64,000 nucleotides of DNA from positions 242,288-306,287 of the forward strand of contig CAWDYI010000005.1 of the NCBI GenBank assembly GCA_963806395.1. Direction: 5' to 3'. This stretch comes from an uncultured Solirubrobacteraceae bacterium. GTDB taxonomy: Bacteria; Actinomycetota; Thermoleophilia; Solirubrobacterales; Solirubrobacteraceae. Position numbers and translations under genes: made by a program. The notes under the pieces are model-generated. The model did no database searches, had not been told where the DNA came from, and saw only the letters and a list, made by a program, of their open reading frames with translations. Below, in pieces: positions 16,649 to 45,294 of this stretch. Position 1 is the first letter of the stretch, and each line of letters begins with the position of its first letter.

Positions 16649-16711
16649 AAACGAAACTTCTGTCTCCCGGCGGGGTTGATTCGTCAGTCAAACCTAGTTG
16701 GAGGGTCCCCC

Positions 16712-17449
16712 TTGCGTAAATACCTGATCGTCGCCGTGGCGGCGTTCACCGCCATCGCCTTTGCCGCTGTGTCTTATGCCCAGGGCGCTGATACCGCCAC
16801 GCTGAAGACGTCGATCAAGCCGAACAAGTCGTCCGGCACGAAGAAGAAGCCGAAGAGCGTCACGCTCGATCTCAACATCGTCAACGGCAACACCTCGCGC
16901 ACGATGTCCGAGCTGGACGTCTTCCTGCCGAAGAAGATCAAGGTCAGCCTCAAGGGCCTGCCGAAGTGCGCGCCCGACGTGATCTTCGCTCGCGGCTGCC
17001 CGAAGTCCGCCGAGCTCGGTCACGGTGACGCGAAGGCGAAGGTCGGCGTCAACGGCCCGCCGGCCAACATCCGCGACCTCACGTTCGAGGTCACCGCCTT
17101 CAAGACGAACAGCCCCGTCGACGGCCACGAGATGCTCGGCTTCTTCATCGACGACGGCGGCACGCTGCAGTTCCTTACGGAGACGACGCTCAGCAGGGCC
17201 TCCGGCAAGTACGGCCAGAAGCTGAACATCGAGGTCCCGGAGCTCGCCCAGCACGTCGGCGCGACGTACAACGGCCTCGTGTCGCTGCACACCACGCTCG
17301 GCAAGAAGAAGGGCAAGAACGCCCTCATGGGGTCCGTCGGCTGCAAGAAGAAGAAGCATCCGTTCAAGGTCGATCTGACCTTCATCGACAACACGATCAC
17401 GCCCGCGGGCAAGATCTCGAAGACCTCTACCGCGAAGTGCAAGGCGTAG
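16712..17449 (+). CDS. secreted Lys-rich protein of unknown function
   Basis: TTG 16712 lies 7 nt after a GGAGGG RBS. Signal peptide LRKYLIVAVAAFTAIAFAAVSYAQG. There are many KK runs and 6 Cys. The local DNA is visibly less GC-rich than the flanks. Confidence 0.7.
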   Translation: MRKYLIVAVAAFTAIAFAAVSYAQGADTATLKTSIKPNKSSGTKKKPKSVTLDLNIVNGNTSRTMSELDVFLPKKIKVSLKGLPKCAPDVIFARGCPKSAELGHGDAKAKVGVNGPPANIRDLTFEVTAFKTNSPVDGHEMLGFFIDDGGTLQFLTETTLSRASGKYGQKLNIEVPELAQHVGATYNGLVSLHTTLGKKKGKNALMGSVGCKKKKHPFKVDLTFIDNTITPAGKISKTSTAKCKA

Positions 17450-41618: not shown

Positions 41619-42189
41619 TCAGGGCTCGATCGCGCGCGTGACCTCCTCCACGGTGCGCGGCTCGGTCGACGGCTGCAGGCCGGAGGGCGGCTCGTCGCGG
41701 TCGGTCGGTTCGAGCAGCGTCGCCTCGCCGTCCGGTGTGACGAGATAGACGCCGGGATCGGCGCCGCTCCCGCAGCCCGAGCCGGCGGGGCGGAACACGA
41801 TCGCGCGGCCGTCGGTCGTCCAGCCGAGCGGCACGGCGGGTCCGGTCGAGACCGGCTGCGCTCGTCGAGCTCGATCCGGCCGATGCCGAGCCTGTCGCGG
41901 GCACGCCGCTCGACATGCCCGCGCTGCATCGTTCTCAGCAGCTGGTGCCGGGCGATCCCGAACAGCCAGTTGACCGCCGAGCCGCGGTCAGGGTCGAACC
42001 GCGCGAGCCCTTCGAGCGCGCACGCGAACGTCTCGGCAGTCAGGTCGGCGCCAGCTCCGGATCGCGCGTGCGCCGGACGAGGTAGCCGAGCACGGGCGCC
42101 GCATGCCGGCGGTAGAACCGCGTGAACGCCTCAGCGTCCGTGCGAGCGGCGAGGAGAAGGGCCTCGTCCGTGACACGCTCGTCGATCAT
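41619..42189 (-). pseudogene. decayed ECF sigma factor locus fused to a beta-propeller (PD40/TolB-like) remnant
   Basis: Frame 1 from ATG 42189 reads MIDERVTDEALLLAARTDAEAFTRFYRRHAAPVLGYLVRRTRDPELAPT-stop (42040). The next frame continues DLTAETFACALEGLARFDPDRGSAVNWLFGIARHQLLRTMQRGHVERRARDRLGIGRIELDERS with no region 4. The third frame (41834..41619) reads PLGWTTDGRAIVFRPAGSG...GVYLVTPDGEATLLEP. Confidence 0.6.
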
Positions 42190-42229
42190 CCATGACCAAT
42201 TACAGGTACGCCGTGTTCCTGTGACAGGT

Positions 42230-42886
42230 TCAGAGTTCGTGGTCCGCCAGCTCGCGCAGGACGAGCGTGATCCGGCGGTCCCCGGTGACGTCGAGCTCGA
42301 AGCCCGAGGTCCAGCTGCCGGCCAGCTCACCGTCCTCGGCGCGCACGTGGTCCACAACGTAGTTGCGGTGCTGCGGCGACACCCAGCTGCCCCGCTCGAG
42401 GTCGATCAGGCCGCCCCCGATCTTCCAGCGGCCGGCCGCGACGCGGAATGTGAAGTCCGGTCCCTCGACGCTCCGCTTGAGGTAGCGCGCCTCGAACACG
42501 CCCTGCGACTTCATCTTGGCGAACGGGAGCAGCGCCTCGGGCACGCCGTCGAGGCGCGCGGGGTCGAGGAAGACGTCGAGCCGGTCGGGGTAGCCGACGT
42601 CGCTTTCGAGCCGGCCGGTGATCTCGAAGAACGGGCCTGCCGCATCCAGCTCGATCGGTCGCTCCGACGACACGGCCACGGTTGCCGCGACCACGGTCGT
42701 CACGTCGGCGCGGACCTTCGCGATCACCGCCGCCTCGGGAGCGCCGTCGACGACGAGGCGAAACTCTCCTCGATCGTCGGTCACGCCGTCCGCGAGCAGC
42801 GACGGGCCGGCGGGATCGAGCGCCAGGACGTCCTGCCCTCCGAGCGGCCGTCCCTCGACCCGCAACGTCCCGGAGATCGCCGTCAT
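42230..42886 (-). CDS. unknown cytoplasmic beta-rich protein, translationally coupled partner of the LQRTAGNQAV protein
   Basis: 218 aa from ATG 42886 (ATGA overlap). The N-terminus TLRVEGRPLGGQDVLALDPAG...DDRGEFRL resembles a carboxypeptidase-regulatory-like beta sandwich. There is no signal peptide. It is the last part of track ORF 42230..43621. Confidence 0.65.
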   Translation of the reverse strand: MTAISGTLRVEGRPLGGQDVLALDPAGPSLLADGVTDDRGEFRLVVDGAPEAAVIAKVRADVTTVVAATVAVSSERPIELDAAGPFFEITGRLESDVGYPDRLDVFLDPARLDGVPEALLPFAKMKSQGVFEARYLKRSVEGPDFTFRVAAGRWKIGGGLIDLERGSWVSPQHRNYVVDHVRAEDGELAGSWTSGFELDVTGDRRITLVLRELADHEL

Positions 42887-43944
42887 GGGAGGTAGGTCAC
42901 CTTCGGGAACTGGCTGATCAGCCGCTTGCGCTGCTCCGGGTCCAGCGAGGTCGCCGAACCGGCCGACTGAACCGTGTTCTTGCGCGGCGGCGTGGTCTTG
43001 GTCGTGAACACCCACTCGACGTCGATCTCCACCTTGTACAGGACGTCGACGTCGCGGACGAGGTAGGTCGTGAAGTGGGCGCGCGACGTGACCGTGGTGG
43101 CGCCGTCGTCGAGCTGGGCGTCCACGAACGCCTTGGCGGCCCCCGGCGCGTCGTAGATCGTCGTGGCGTCCGCGGTCCGCACGTTCGTCCCGCCCGCCTC
43201 GTAGAACGGGCTGCCCTTCGCAGGGTCGGTGTCCGTGTTGTAGTTCGGCTTCTTCGGGTCGGTGGTGAGCTTGTAGCGGCCGCCGCTCGTGCCGATCTCG
43301 TCGTCGAGCCGGAACGTCTTCTTCGTCGGGTGATCGACGACGATCTCGCGCCAGATGAACTGCAGCCAGCGCGTCTTGGCCGCCTCGGCGCCCTTGTAGC
43401 CGACCGAGAAGCCCTCCTTGTAGGTCCCGCCCGCGTATTCGGCACCGGTTCGGACGCTGACCTCGCCTCCGCCCACCTTGCCCGAGTGCTTGAGCTCCCC
43501 CTCCTTGGTCACGTTGGCCTGGTCGCCCTCGGTGGTCGCCGGCGGCGGGTTGCGCTTGAACGCGACGAGCCGGTTCAGCCGGTACGCCCCGGTCATGAAC
43601 GGCATGATGCTGAGCCCCCACGCCGCGAAGCCGAGCTTGCCGAGCTGGTCGTCGGTCAGGCCCTTGATGAGGTCGTTGATCTCCTTGTCGGGCAGGTCCT
43701 TGATCGCGGTCGCGGCCGCCATCCAGTCGTCGGCCTTCACCGCGTCCTGGAACGCGTCCTTCGGCGCCTTGGCGGTCGCCGTCGGACCGTTGCGCGCGAG
43801 CATCTGCCCCACCGCCTGGTTCCCGGCCGTGCGCTGGAGCGCCAGGACGGCTTCGGCGGGCGCGGGCGGCGCAGGCCCCGGCTCCGCCTGCTCCTCCGCG
43901 ACCACCGGAGTGACCCGGACGCGTCGCTTCTCTTTCACGGGCAA
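42883..43944 (-). CDS. protein with N-terminal LQRTAGNQAV motif (DUF4157-type leader) and an unassigned Lys-rich C-terminal domain
   Basis: 353 aa. A Pro/Ala-rich leader is followed by AVLALQRTAGNQAVGQML (about aa 32-49). No HExxH follows. I count 28 Lys. The codon style is lower-GC than the neighbours. Confidence 0.7.
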   Translation of the reverse strand: MPVKEKRRVRVTPVVAEEQAEPGPAPPAPAEAVLALQRTAGNQAVGQMLARNGPTATAKAPKDAFQDAVKADDWMAAATAIKDLPDKEINDLIKGLTDDQLGKLGFAAWGLSIMPFMTGAYRLNRLVAFKRNPPPATTEGDQANVTKEGELKHSGKVGGGEVSVRTGAEYAGGTYKEGFSVGYKGAEAAKTRWLQFIWREIVVDHPTKKTFRLDDEIGTSGGRYKLTTDPKKPNYNTDTDPAKGSPFYEAGGTNVRTADATTIYDAPGAAKAFVDAQLDDGATTVTSRAHFTTYLVRDVDVLYKVEIDVEWVFTTKTTPPRKNTVQSAGSATSLDPEQRKRLISQFPKVTYLP

Positions 43945-44007
43945 ACTGTCTCAGGACCGCGCTGCCCGAAGAGGCAGACTTCCGTGAGCGCGGTCAGCCC
44001 GTGACGG

Positions 44008-44388
44008 TCAGCCGTACGTCCGCCACCTGGCGATCGGCGAGTCGTAGAGGACCCACCCGGACTGGTCGTGTCCCTTGACCTTGAAGTAGATCTCGGCGGG
44101 CTCCTTGATCTTCGGGCAACGCAACGTGTGCCGGCCGTCCGAGTACGCGTACTTGACCTTGTCGGCGATGCCGGCGTAGTTCCACGACACCCGGACGCGC
44201 TTGCCGTTGGCCACGTTGTCGTAGATGTCGAAGCAGTCGCCGTTCGGGTGGAAGACGACGCCGGCGAGGTTGTGCTGCGTCTGCGTGCGGTCCGATCGGA
44301 CCCAGGCGGAAGCGGACGAGGTTGCGATCGCGCTCACGGCCAAGACCGCGATCGCGACCGCGAGAACTGAGAGTCGGCGGAAATTCAT
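44008..44388 (-). CDS. small secreted protein of unknown function
   Basis: 126 aa. Signal peptide MNFRRLSVLAVAIAVLAVSAIATSSASA. The mature part has 2 Cys and looks beta-rich. Confidence 0.65.
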   Translation of the reverse strand: MNFRRLSVLAVAIAVLAVSAIATSSASAWVRSDRTQTQHNLAGVVFHPNGDCFDIYDNVANGKRVRVSWNYAGIADKVKYAYSDGRHTLRCPKIKEPAEIYFKVKGHDQSGWVLYDSPIARWRTYG

Positions 44389-44508
44389 AGAACGACGTAC
44401 CTCCGTGTGATGGGGATCTGCTCCACCCCGTTACTCACGGATCGCGCGCCCGAATATTCCCGGCTCGTCCACCTTTACCGCGGCAATGGGCTGTGGTCTA
44501 GTTGCGCG

Positions 44509-45294
44509 ATGACCCGCTCGCTCGCGCTCGCCATCCTCGCCCTGCTCGCGCTGCCCTCGGCTGCGCTCGCCAACCCGTCGATCTCGGTGTCGTCCTCGCG
44601 TGACGGCTCCACGTCGCGCCTGCCGGCGAAGGTGAAGCACCGTCTGACGATGACGGCGGGCGCCACGGCCGAGGCCGTGACCGTGAGCGTCAGCCCGTCG
44701 GCGCGGCTCGAGGTGGGCGGCAATCCGCAGACGGTGACCTTCCCGACGAGTGGCACCGGGCCGGGTGTGGCCGCGTGTCCGGGTCGCTGGATCCGGCTGC
44801 ACAACGCCTACCGTGCCGGCTCGCTGCTGGACTCGGTGACGTTGACGCTCGCGCCTGGGGCGACCGCGTTCGTCGAAGCGACGGTCACGCTCGTGCGGGC
44901 GCCGTGGGCCGACGAGACGCTCGACGCCTCATGGCTGGTCGAGCCCGCGCAGGGGAGTCCGTTCGACGTCATCTCGACCGCACCGCGCTACCGCGGTCCG
45001 ATCGGCGTCCAACTCGCGTTCGGGGTCGCCCGCGCGCCGGACGGGCACTACGTCGTCACCGGCACGACCGACCCGAGCGTCAACTCCGGCCGCGTCGAGC
45101 TCTGGGCCTACCCGCCGCGACGCAACCGCGCGAAGCGGATCGCGCGCGTACGCGTCCACGAGGGGTCGTGGTCCTTCAACCACTTCATGCCCGACCGCAC
45201 CGGCCGCTGGGAGCTCTACGCCCGCTACCGCGCGGGCGGCCGCACCTTCGCCAACGACACGTCCGAGTGCGGCACGTTCGTCCGCGTCCGCTGA
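44509..45294 (+). CDS. secreted protein of unknown function
   Basis: 261 aa from ATG 44509, inside track ORF 44407..45294. Signal peptide MTRSLALAILALLALPSAALA. The C-terminus is Ig-like and beta-rich. Confidence 0.65.
   Translation: MTRSLALAILALLALPSAALANPSISVSSSRDGSTSRLPAKVKHRLTMTAGATAEAVTVSVSPSARLEVGGNPQTVTFPTSGTGPGVAACPGRWIRLHNAYRAGSLLDSVTLTLAPGATAFVEATVTLVRAPWADETLDASWLVEPAQGSPFDVISTAPRYRGPIGVQLAFGVARAPDGHYVVTGTTDPSVNSGRVELWAYPPRRNRAKRIARVRVHEGSWSFNHFMPDRTGRWELYARYRAGGRTFANDTSECGTFVRVR

Follow-up and report, generated by a model that had tools for sequence, protein, structure and literature searches.

A candidate effector gene of contractile injection system lineage and its conserved downstream partner in an uncultured Solirubrobacteraceae bacterium

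The DUF4157 domain marks toxins of the extracellular contractile injection systems (eCIS), and more than half of the predicted eCIS toxins carry it without any annotated effector domain (Danov et al.). In the AlgoCIS cargo proteins a disordered N-terminal domain is required for loading, and DUF4157 is dispensable for this step. Many of these eCIS toxins (EATs) have no recognised immunity gene; in polymorphic toxin systems the syntenic genes downstream of the toxin domains act as immunity genes. Architectures in which DUF4157 is followed by an annexin domain and a toxin domain are also known (Kodavali et al. 2014, PMC3894181), and in the Haliangium ochraceum annexins with an Ntox_3 domain the last domain has been read as the toxin and the annexin as an aid to membrane delivery (PMC3894181). 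Here we compare with these systems a locus in a 64-kb window, the whole stretch of Solirubrobacteraceae DNA that was analysed. We consider it probable, though well short of certain, that this locus encodes an effector of CIS lineage that lacks the DUF4157 core and is not accompanied by CIS genes, together with a cognate immunity-like partner, and that the two form a polymorphic module.

An earlier note on this DNA had described three genes on the minus strand as a cassette, and all three reading frames are present in the ORF list and in the sequence (Table 1). The 126-aa frame opens with ATG and the 353-aa frame with TTG; public gene calls and an exact-sequence look-up use the GTG at 43938, two codons further in, which gives a protein of 351 aa, and this GTG is more probably the start of the effector-like gene. 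The ATG of the 218-aa frame does overlap the preceding stop codon, and a 4-bp overlap or a gap of <20 bp between the corresponding genes recurs in loci L001, L002, L021, L023, L024 and L025, so spaced that the two genes may well be translationally coupled. In the 126-aa protein a strongly hydrophobic N-terminal segment precedes ASA, in agreement with the signal peptide assigned to it before; the protein also has two cysteines. Its gene has counterparts only at the near-identical loci L003 and L020, its cluster has seven members that are all near-identical, and none of the other pair-bearing loci compared contains it; it is thus ruled out as a member of the module, and the conserved unit is of two genes, not three.

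Table 1. Features of the effector-like locus (positions in the 64-kb window)
Feature	Coordinates	Strand	Basis
Effector-like gene (353 aa)	42883..43944	-	ORF list; 351-aa public call; 100 homologues; AF2 model
Disordered leader, aa 1-29	43858..43944	-	low pLDDT; alignment consensus; AlgoCIS analogy
Leader helices, aa 30-52	43789..43857	-	translation; secondary structure; motif count in homologues
Helical linker, aa 57-133, five helices	43546..43776	-	secondary structure; P0100 sequence; hhalign
All-beta C-terminal domain, aa 140-353, putative toxic/active moiety	42886..43527	-	null domain searches; family; invariant residues
ATGA stop/start overlap	42883..42886	-	sequence; recurrence in other loci
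Partner gene, 218 aa, putative cognate immunity protein	42230..42886	-	AF2; Foldseek; synteny
126-aa secreted-protein gene, lineage-specific neighbour	44008..44388	-	presence/absence across loci

The composition of the region is somewhat unusual. The lower GC content noticed earlier is real but weak (0.690, where the mean of the window is 0.7165; 7th percentile among equally sized windows); it is due to the genes for the 126-aa protein (0.646) and the 353-aa protein (0.691), that for the 218-aa protein being average (0.712). The 353-aa protein contains the 28 lysines previously counted and has a K/(K+R) ratio of 0.60 vs 0.15 across the 54 predicted genes of the window, where its gene is the second most lysine-rich. 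Promoter, terminator and Rfam scans of the interval from 41 to 46 kb gave no matches.

The AF2 model of the 353-aa protein (pLDDT 91.8, pTM 0.81) shows, in order, a disordered leader, a helix with the LQRxxGNxAV motif, a helical linker and an all-beta C-terminal domain (CTD) of about 215 aa. Residues 1-30 have pLDDT values of 53-68 and a Pro/Ala/charged composition; the leader is basic at first and then Pro/Ala-rich, with a conserved RxRVR-type start (alignment consensus MxxxxRxRxxP), and by analogy with the AlgoCIS cargo it is a candidate packaging signal. The motif, LQRTAGNQAV, stands where it had been reported, behind the Pro/Ala-rich N-terminus at residues 36-45 (nucleotides 43810-43839), in a region carried by two predicted helices (residues 30-40 and 42-52). 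Among 100 homologues the LQRxxGNxAV motif lies at position 15-70 in 62, and in 12 it precedes an HExxH sequence; the 353-aa protein itself has no HExxH, as was stated before, and it gives no match to Pfam PF13699 even at E<=1. The earlier note would have taken a failure of profile searches to support the motif as evidence against the module. Literally this is the outcome, yet it is uninformative, because LQRTAGNQAV lies outside the PF13699 model and Pfam is blind to it. By profile and HExxH sequence the protein is therefore no member of the DUF4157/eCIS_core family, but about 28 of the 100 homologues have PF13699, and about 27 have annexin (PF00191), upstream of the same CTD, and this homology to PF13699-bearing proteins places the leader in the DUF4157 lineage, with the domain lost, as had been proposed from the motif.

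The linker is common to a relative, P0100, whose C-terminal domain is different. It is not a degenerate annexin repeat (hhalign against the annexin repeats of the family gives a probability of 0.8%), and the 353-aa protein has no Pfam match to annexin (PF00191; calcium site GxGT-[38]-D/E). When the N-terminal 116 aa were used by themselves in a word-index protein search, no matches came back. Neither the 353-aa nor the 218-aa protein has a signal peptide or transmembrane segment, and the classical trafficking domains RHS, PAAR, LXG and TPS are absent from the 353-aa protein.

The CTD, which carries the motifs WLQFIWRE, TTDP, YNTD, PFYE, NxRT..D..T..D.P and SRAHF.TYL, has no match in Pfam, NCBIfam or PADLOC, and scans of the 218-aa and 126-aa proteins with these libraries likewise gave nothing meaningful. 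The Foldseek search that had been suggested for it also came back empty, with nothing at E<1e-3 for the 353-aa model in PDB or BFVD and only weak similarities (TM<0.2) to generic beta-sandwiches such as arrestin, the Kir cytoplasmic domain and ASF1, and a PDB profile search with alignment A1 was empty. The family is nevertheless large: it comprises at least 741 clusters when grouped at 50% identity, and it spans at least four phyla. No relatives were found among 2.9 million viral contigs, so a phage origin is unlikely. The CTD follows five N-terminal arrangements (leader only, annexin, DUF4157, DUF4157 plus annexin, and M-domain); eCIS_core is present in 27 of 70 long representatives of the family and Annexin in 10 of the 70, and these recurrent annexin fusions suggest that the CTD may act at or near membranes. 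The "M-domain" is another HExxH domain of about 300 aa, fused to the CTD on either side in 29 of 227 family members, so the CTD is not always a terminal "toxin slot".

The lack of a recognisable catalytic fold in the Foldseek and PDB profile searches counts against the reading of the CTD as a toxin. It could be a non-catalytic binding or targeting domain (for a receptor, a lipid or the tube lumen, for example), with the DUF4157 or HExxH domains as the active parts of the longer relatives and the window copy as a decayed remnant. The purely generic Foldseek similarities, the internal position of the CTD in proteins where an HExxH domain follows it, and the absence of any recognisable enzymatic domain from the window protein are all in keeping with this. 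On the other hand, the CTD is strongly conserved across phyla, and the conservation is concentrated on polar residues: Q195, D265 and P267 are among the invariant positions, and the invariant polar residues (Q195, E200, D229, D238, R256, D265, S287 and H290) suggest an enzyme or ligand site. Proteins of about 350 aa with only the leader and the CTD are the commonest class and are intact in many lineages, and the GC3 of 0.96 of the 353-aa gene and the existence of orthologues with 80-92% identity favour purifying selection over decay. A passive domain would also hardly be expected to have a dedicated, co-diverging partner (below), and we regard this explanation as quite improbable.

The 218-aa partner is modelled by AF2 (pLDDT 90.3) as two tandem beta-sandwich domains of the CarboxypepD_reg or pilin-like kind, and its Foldseek matches are to TIE, SdrD B, pilin and DUF3823 folds. 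This fold is generic and in that respect speaks against the module. The earlier note had called for a check of whether homologues of the two proteins co-occur, and of 17 independent loci in which the CTD is terminal, 14 have a homologue of the partner immediately beside the CTD gene (partner HMM scores of 86-362 bits). Conversely, in metagenome loci found with the partner as the seed (five in total), the CTD gene is just upstream in all four that have upstream sequence. The 218-aa gene thus proved to be a coupled, conserved partner, which accompanies the CTD whatever the N-terminal architecture and across phyla. The partner diverges faster than the CTD (mean identity 27% vs 43%), and the two diverge in step (r=0.88). 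P0100, which is 55% identical to the 353-aa protein over about 20% of the latter, through a common leader and linker, and has an unrelated C-terminal domain, is followed with a 4-bp overlap by a gene that is unrelated to the partner. These loci therefore contain a constant N-terminus with alternative C-terminal domains, the same C-terminal domain behind several N-terminal architectures, and an adjacent gene that co-varies with the C-terminal domain, being replaced along with it in P0100; a partner that tracks the CTD, together with this swap, follows the logic of polymorphic toxin-immunity systems. One 539-aa protein, P0248, looked like a natural fusion of effector and partner, but it contains out-of-frame translation; the apparent fusion results from a frameshift in the assembly and is no Rosetta stone.

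The partner is not obligatory, because it is missing within the available flanks of three otherwise canonical loci (L007, L012 and L027), two of which (L007 and L012) are the clearest CIS-embedded copies, and it and the M-domain are mutually exclusive (Fisher p=0.002, 22 loci; the partner is found in none of five loci with M-domain fusions). That some CIS-embedded loci do without the partner is more easily understood of an accessory factor than of an essential antidote, and the 218-aa protein might be a CTD-specific chaperone, stabiliser or co-effector instead of an immunity protein, either holding the all-beta CTD in a soluble or unfolded-competent state for loading or serving as the second subunit of a binary effector. 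The exclusion of partner and M-domain, as if they were alternative accessory functions, the resemblance of the partner to adhesin and pilin beta-sandwiches, which are typically ligand-binding, and the chaperone roles proposed for genes adjoining eCIS toxins (Danov et al.) point in the same direction. The partner nevertheless tracks the C-terminal domain and not the leader. The regions recognised by known secretion chaperones and adaptors are mostly N-terminal or concerned with trafficking. The immediate downstream position, the ATGA overlap and the faster divergence form the classical immunity pattern, and since the partner has no leader of its own its co-export is not indicated. We therefore think such a role for the partner unlikely.

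As the earlier note had it, there are no sheath, tube or baseplate genes in the window, and by Pfam calls, the largest ORFs and comparison with CIS loci the module is an orphan there: of the other ORFs, the ten largest encode housekeeping enzymes, and ORFs from five CIS-linked homologous loci have no matches in the window besides the CTD and the partner. Pfam calls within 10 kb on either side in a 99%-identical contig also gave no CIS genes, and this counts against CIS delivery here. Three homologous loci lie near CIS genes. L023 has a WHD+AAA ATPase gene (1e-51) and a weak CIS_TMP match upstream and more DUF4157/PT-HINT toxin genes downstream, L007 has a CIS_TMP gene (6.7e-104) two genes upstream, and L016 has a CIS_tube gene directly downstream. 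The idea that homologues lie near secretion loci thus holds for these three, which are within the roughly 10 genes of a CIS operon used to recognise EATs, and fails for the window copy. Searches of PDB by sequence with the large neighbours in L022 gave no matches.

These surroundings could mean that the module works without a CIS in its host, as an intracellular conflict module in which the toxin is restrained by the partner and freed upon phage attack or stress, or as an effector that leaves the cell by some other pathway, for instance the actinobacterial type VII system. The partner-positive genome loci are largely in housekeeping surroundings, the DUF4157 core is lost, and eCIS were found in only 1/3 Solirubrobacter genomes (Geller et al.). 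L002 contains a gene for a SLATT_1/DUF4231 protein, predicted to be a membrane suicide effector, that overlaps the CTD gene at its start, and in L021 of Paractinoplanes globisporus the CTD gene directly follows a trio of YbaB-like, EspC-like and WXG100_2-like genes. Each of these neighbourhoods was, however, seen only once, the type VII-like one in the Paractinoplanes homologue alone; Pfam finds no WXG100 or LXG domain in the window proteins and no ESX genes adjoin them, and neither the three proteins nor the divergent neighbour match any PADLOC model at E<=0.1. In addition, the leader is kept and conserved, which would be needless in a purely intracellular toxin, the same leader is present in proteins within CIS operons, and eCIS cargo can be encoded off-operon, as are the 12% of known EATs that lie >10 genes away (Danov et al.). 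A function of the module outside any CIS is accordingly a possibility that we hold to be rather doubtful.

According to the effector-immunity explanation that we prefer, the CTD would be the active, probably toxic, moiety, and the cytoplasmic 218-aa beta-sandwich protein would bind and neutralise it in the producing cell, the ATGA overlap tying the translation of the two proteins together. An export machine may recognise the disordered leader or use it for packaging; this machine would presumably be a CIS, provided that the genome encodes one at another site, and the module would have lost the DUF4157 metallopeptidase-like core and come to lie away from the CIS genes. More tentatively, the CTD may be a toxin family of new fold with a dedicated immunity family of two beta-sandwich domains, the leader-only orphan form a case of CIS-type cargo put to use without a CIS (as an effector of self-directed death or of defence, for instance, or by recruitment in trans through the LQRxxGNxAV leader) and the M-domain an alternative, built-in regulator; we put this combination forward as speculation.

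The CTD and partner families are widespread in soil bacteria, unnamed and unstudied. The analysis defines one unannotated domain family with a confidently predicted fold and no solved relative, plus a matching partner family, and the cassette swap and the architecture-independent synteny make a clean comparative argument that the pair functions as a unit. Should the CTD prove toxic, it would be a new activity among injectable payloads and the pair a candidate toxin-immunity pair for engineering, and orphan copies that lack DUF4157 could help to separate the contributions of the leader motif and the DUF4157 core to cargo loading.

[quoted passage not shown] Unlike these proteins, the window protein is without the DUF4157 core and away from CIS genes, its CTD is an unannotated all-beta domain and, in contrast to many EATs, it is accompanied by a conserved partner encoded downstream. 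An identity with PT6, a toxin of <150 aa fused to DUF4157 (Nachmias et al.), was also weighed, but the size and distribution described for PT6 are different. The DUF4157-annexin-toxin proteins have an order that is exactly that of many CTD relatives (DUF4157, annexin repeat, C-terminal domain), but here the C-terminal domain is of a different, unnamed family, and the window copy has no annexin repeat and a linker that is not annexin-like. The polymorphic toxin-immunity cassettes (Zhang-Aravind type; PT-PIM, Nachmias et al.) share the constant N-terminal region with swappable C-terminal domains, and, as in them, the downstream gene changes with the C-terminal domain and is constant across N-terminal architectures. 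The module differs from the classical polymorphic toxins in having no RHS, PAAR, LXG or TPS trafficking domain, and from their cassettes in that its partner is large (about 200-225 aa, with two domains), fairly conserved, and missing from some loci.

All three minus-strand open reading frames lie where the earlier note placed them (table below), and the sequence of the 353-aa product bears out both its lack of HExxH and its 28 Lys; with 19 Arg, its K/(K+R) is 0.60 vs 0.15 for 54 predicted window genes. In public gene calls, and in a look-up of the exact sequence, this effector-like protein starts at a GTG two codons downstream of the TTG, giving 351 aa. The lower-GC patch described for the cassette exists but is modest (0.690 vs 0.7165, 7th percentile among equal-sized windows), and the 218-aa partner gene is outside it. 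A stronger compositional outlier is the gene for a 257-aa protein whose N-terminus is hydrophobic; no other gene of the window is richer in Lys (12.5% K) or lower in GC (0.62). Apart from the window, the 126-aa gene occurs in the near-identical contigs L003 and L020 alone and is absent from all other pair-bearing loci, so the supposed three-gene cassette reduces to a conserved module of two genes. A divergent gene 19 bp from the start of the 126-aa gene encodes a 295-aa protein that seems to have a signal peptide and matches nothing in Pfam or PADLOC. Directly downstream of the partner gene is a frameshift-split ECF sigma-70-like gene (MIDERVTDEALLLAARTDAEAFTRFYRRHAAPVLGYLVRRTRDPELA in one frame, DLTAETFACALEGLARFDPDRGSAVNWLFGIARHQLL in another); this is a pseudogene or else an indel of the assembly.

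Features of the window and of loci (L numbers) that carry relatives of the 353-aa protein (CTD, its C-terminal domain)
Feature	Location	Strand	Remarks
126-aa ORF	44388 to 44008	minus	ATG start; hydrophobic N-terminal segment, then ASA
Effector-like ORF, 353 aa	43944 to 42883	minus	TTG start in mechanical ORF list
Partner ORF, 218 aa	42886 to 42230	minus	ATG within ATGA stop/start overlap
Disordered N-terminus	residues 1-29		AlphaFold2 model
Motif-carrying helices	residues 30-52		AlphaFold2 model
LQRTAGNQAV	residues 36-45		353-aa protein
Linker of five helices	residues 61-131		AlphaFold2 model
CTD as defined	residues 140-353		353-aa protein
All-beta domain	about residue 150 to C-terminus		AlphaFold2 model
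295-aa protein gene	44407-45294	plus
Split ECF sigma-70-like gene	41930-42200	minus
257-aa protein gene	16676-17449	plus
SLATT-CTD-partner genes	L002, 4482-6606
Trio, CTD gene and partner	L021, 8472-12303
Region of annexin-bearing orthologue	L024, 6735-12036
P0100 and 184-aa product	L025, 581-2196
Partner beside CTD	L001, L002		metagenome
Partner beside CTD	L004/L024		Thermoleophilia
Partner beside CTD	L005		Cytophagaceae
Partner beside CTD	L006/L021		Paractinoplanes globisporus
Partner beside CTD	L008		deltaproteobacterial MAG
Partner beside CTD	L009, L010, L011, L017		Kofleriaceae
Partner beside CTD	L022
Partner beside CTD	L023		Acidobacteria
Partner beside CTD	L026		divergent orientation, 82 bp upstream
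M-domain type	L013-L016, L018		P0094-P0098, P0140, P0161 and others

Scans of Pfam, NCBIfam and PADLOC found nothing for the 353-aa protein; the proposed search for DUF4157 (eCIS_core, PF13699) gave no match, and the PF13699 model does not span the LQRxxGNxAV leader motif. A search of 5.8 billion proteins returned 100 homologues of modular architecture in two groups: some are about 350 aa long and collinear with the query, and others, of 450-620 aa, match only its C-terminal ~60% and carry PF13699 (about 28 proteins), PF00191 annexin (about 27) or both upstream. Of the 100, 62 carry the motif [LMIV]Q[RQKA]xxGNx[AS] at position 15-70, and because an HExxH core follows ~90-180 residues downstream in 12 of these, its identity as a leader of DUF4157-type proteins is upheld within the CTD family; other DUF4157 proteins of the same loci have LQRK-like motifs only. 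The AlphaFold2 model, made from a 50-sequence alignment, is confident (pLDDT 91.8, pTM 0.81). Conservation of the CTD is mainly in polar motifs (WLQFIWRE, TTDP, YNTD, PFYE, NxRT..D..T..D.P, SRAHF.TYL), and the suggested Foldseek comparison with PDB and BFVD yielded nothing better than E=4e-3 (TM<0.2); a PDB profile search was empty. When 1.84 billion cluster representatives were searched exhaustively with an HMM, the family grew to 741 members at E<=1e-3 (436 at E<=1e-10), and the only recurrent Pfam domains in 70 long members are eCIS_core (27), annexin (10) and SH3_3 (2). Genome matches are in Actinomycetota, Bacteroidota, Myxococcota and Acidobacteriota, with no relatives among 2.9 million viral contigs.

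A word-index search found only 13 clusters of partner homologues, but a profile built from them places homologues directly beside CTD genes much more widely, in 14 of 17 independent loci with the CTD as terminal domain (L007, L012 and L027 lack it within their available flanks). With the partner as seed, five metagenome loci were recovered, and the CTD gene is directly upstream in 4/4 having upstream sequence. The co-occurrence that was to be checked is thus found across genomes, and the tight coupling read from the ATGA overlap is matched by this adjacency. The synteny is independent of architecture, as the partner accompanies the CTD behind leader-only, annexin, DUF4157 and DUF4157+annexin N-termini. 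In a comparison of 13 pairs, conservation is lower in the partner (mean identity 27%) than in the CTD (43%), and their distances are correlated (r=0.88). The partner model (pLDDT 90.3) has two tandem beta-sandwiches with likeness to CarboxypepD_reg, pilin and adhesin domains, and the protein is signal-less as described, with no TM segment. One 539-aa member of its 90% cluster, P0248, was rejected as an effector-partner fusion, since its out-of-frame translated stretches indicate a long-read assembly indel artefact; on the related contig L020 several genes (RNR, phytase-like) are broken up in the same way. The CTD would be the toxic moiety and the partner a putative immunity protein neutralising it; a chaperone or co-effector role for the partner seems unlikely.

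A cassette swap is seen in the homologue P0100, which has the leader and linker of the window protein, an unrelated C-terminal domain of ~200 aa and, overlapping by 4 bp, a downstream gene for a helical 184-aa product that shows no resemblance to the partner; which gene lies downstream thus depends on the C-terminal domain and not on the leader. Neither this domain nor the 184-aa product has a Pfam match, and the two genes are a second uncharacterised cassette of the same system. In 29 of 227 family members the CTD is joined, on one side or the other, to a ~300-aa HExxH-containing domain not recognised by Pfam, here called the M-domain (GLNxVxNL...GxTGFxD...AIMLGP...RHExxHAxH). The partner is present at 0/5 M-domain genome loci vs 14/17 terminal-CTD loci (Fisher p=0.002), which suggests that the M-domain may substitute for its role. 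These fusions weaken the simple view of the CTD as always a terminal toxin slot; that it is a non-toxic binding domain is improbable.

The reported absence of sheath, tube and baseplate genes from the window agrees with a comparison in which ORFs of five homologous loci linked to contractile injection systems (CIS) matched only its CTD and partner. The ten largest other window ORFs are metabolic or helicase genes, and on a 304-kb contig of 99% identity Pfam finds regulators, an F420H2-dependent reductase, glyoxalase and ribonucleotide reductase within +-10 kb. Proximity to such systems is nevertheless found for some homologues: at L023 the CTD gene comes after a WHD+AAA ATPase (1e-51), itself preceded by a weak CIS tape-measure match, and before further DUF4157/PT-HINT proteins; at L007 a CIS tape-measure gene (6.7e-104) is two genes upstream; and at L016 the next gene is one for a CIS tube. 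Partner-negative loci together have CIS_tube (2), Phage_base_V (3) and AAA (2); partner-positive genome loci are mostly amid housekeeping genes. A CIS may be encoded elsewhere in the genome of the window's organism, with the leader in a putative loading role.

Locus L024 is syntenic with the window (F420H2_quin_red and glyoxalase downstream), and the annexin repeats of its orthologous protein show N-terminal remodelling at an orthologous locus. A phage-integrase-family gene, an EVE-domain gene and an ECF sigma/anti-sigma pair just upstream of this orthologue hint at a variable island. On one soil metagenome contig (L002) a gene for a SLATT_1/DUF4231 protein with two TM segments overlaps the CTD gene start in a three-gene SLATT-CTD-partner operon. 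In P. globisporus DSM 43857 (L021) a DUF4157-annexin-CTD gene and its partner come right after a trio of YbaB-like, EspC-like (borderline match) and WXG100_2-like genes, which belong to families that typify type VII secretion loci. The SLATT neighbour and the ESX-like trio, each a single observation, would fit a module that works without a CIS, as an intracellular conflict module or through T7SS export, which we hold possible but doubtful.

The best-supported reading, and a probable one, is that the pair belongs to the DUF4157/CIS cargo lineage as a polymorphic module of effector/immunity type; the first interpretation keeps its effector/partner coupling and DUF4157-type leader, with two genes instead of three. 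The literature supports this module: DUF4157 marks toxins of extracellular CIS (eCIS), DUF4157-annexin-toxin architectures are known (PMC3894181), and syntenic genes downstream of polymorphic toxin domains have immunity function. AlgoCIS cargo loading needs the disordered N-terminal region, not DUF4157 itself. Within the DUF4157/CIS class of polymorphic effectors, the CTD and partner are a predicted, unannotated effector domain and its partner family.
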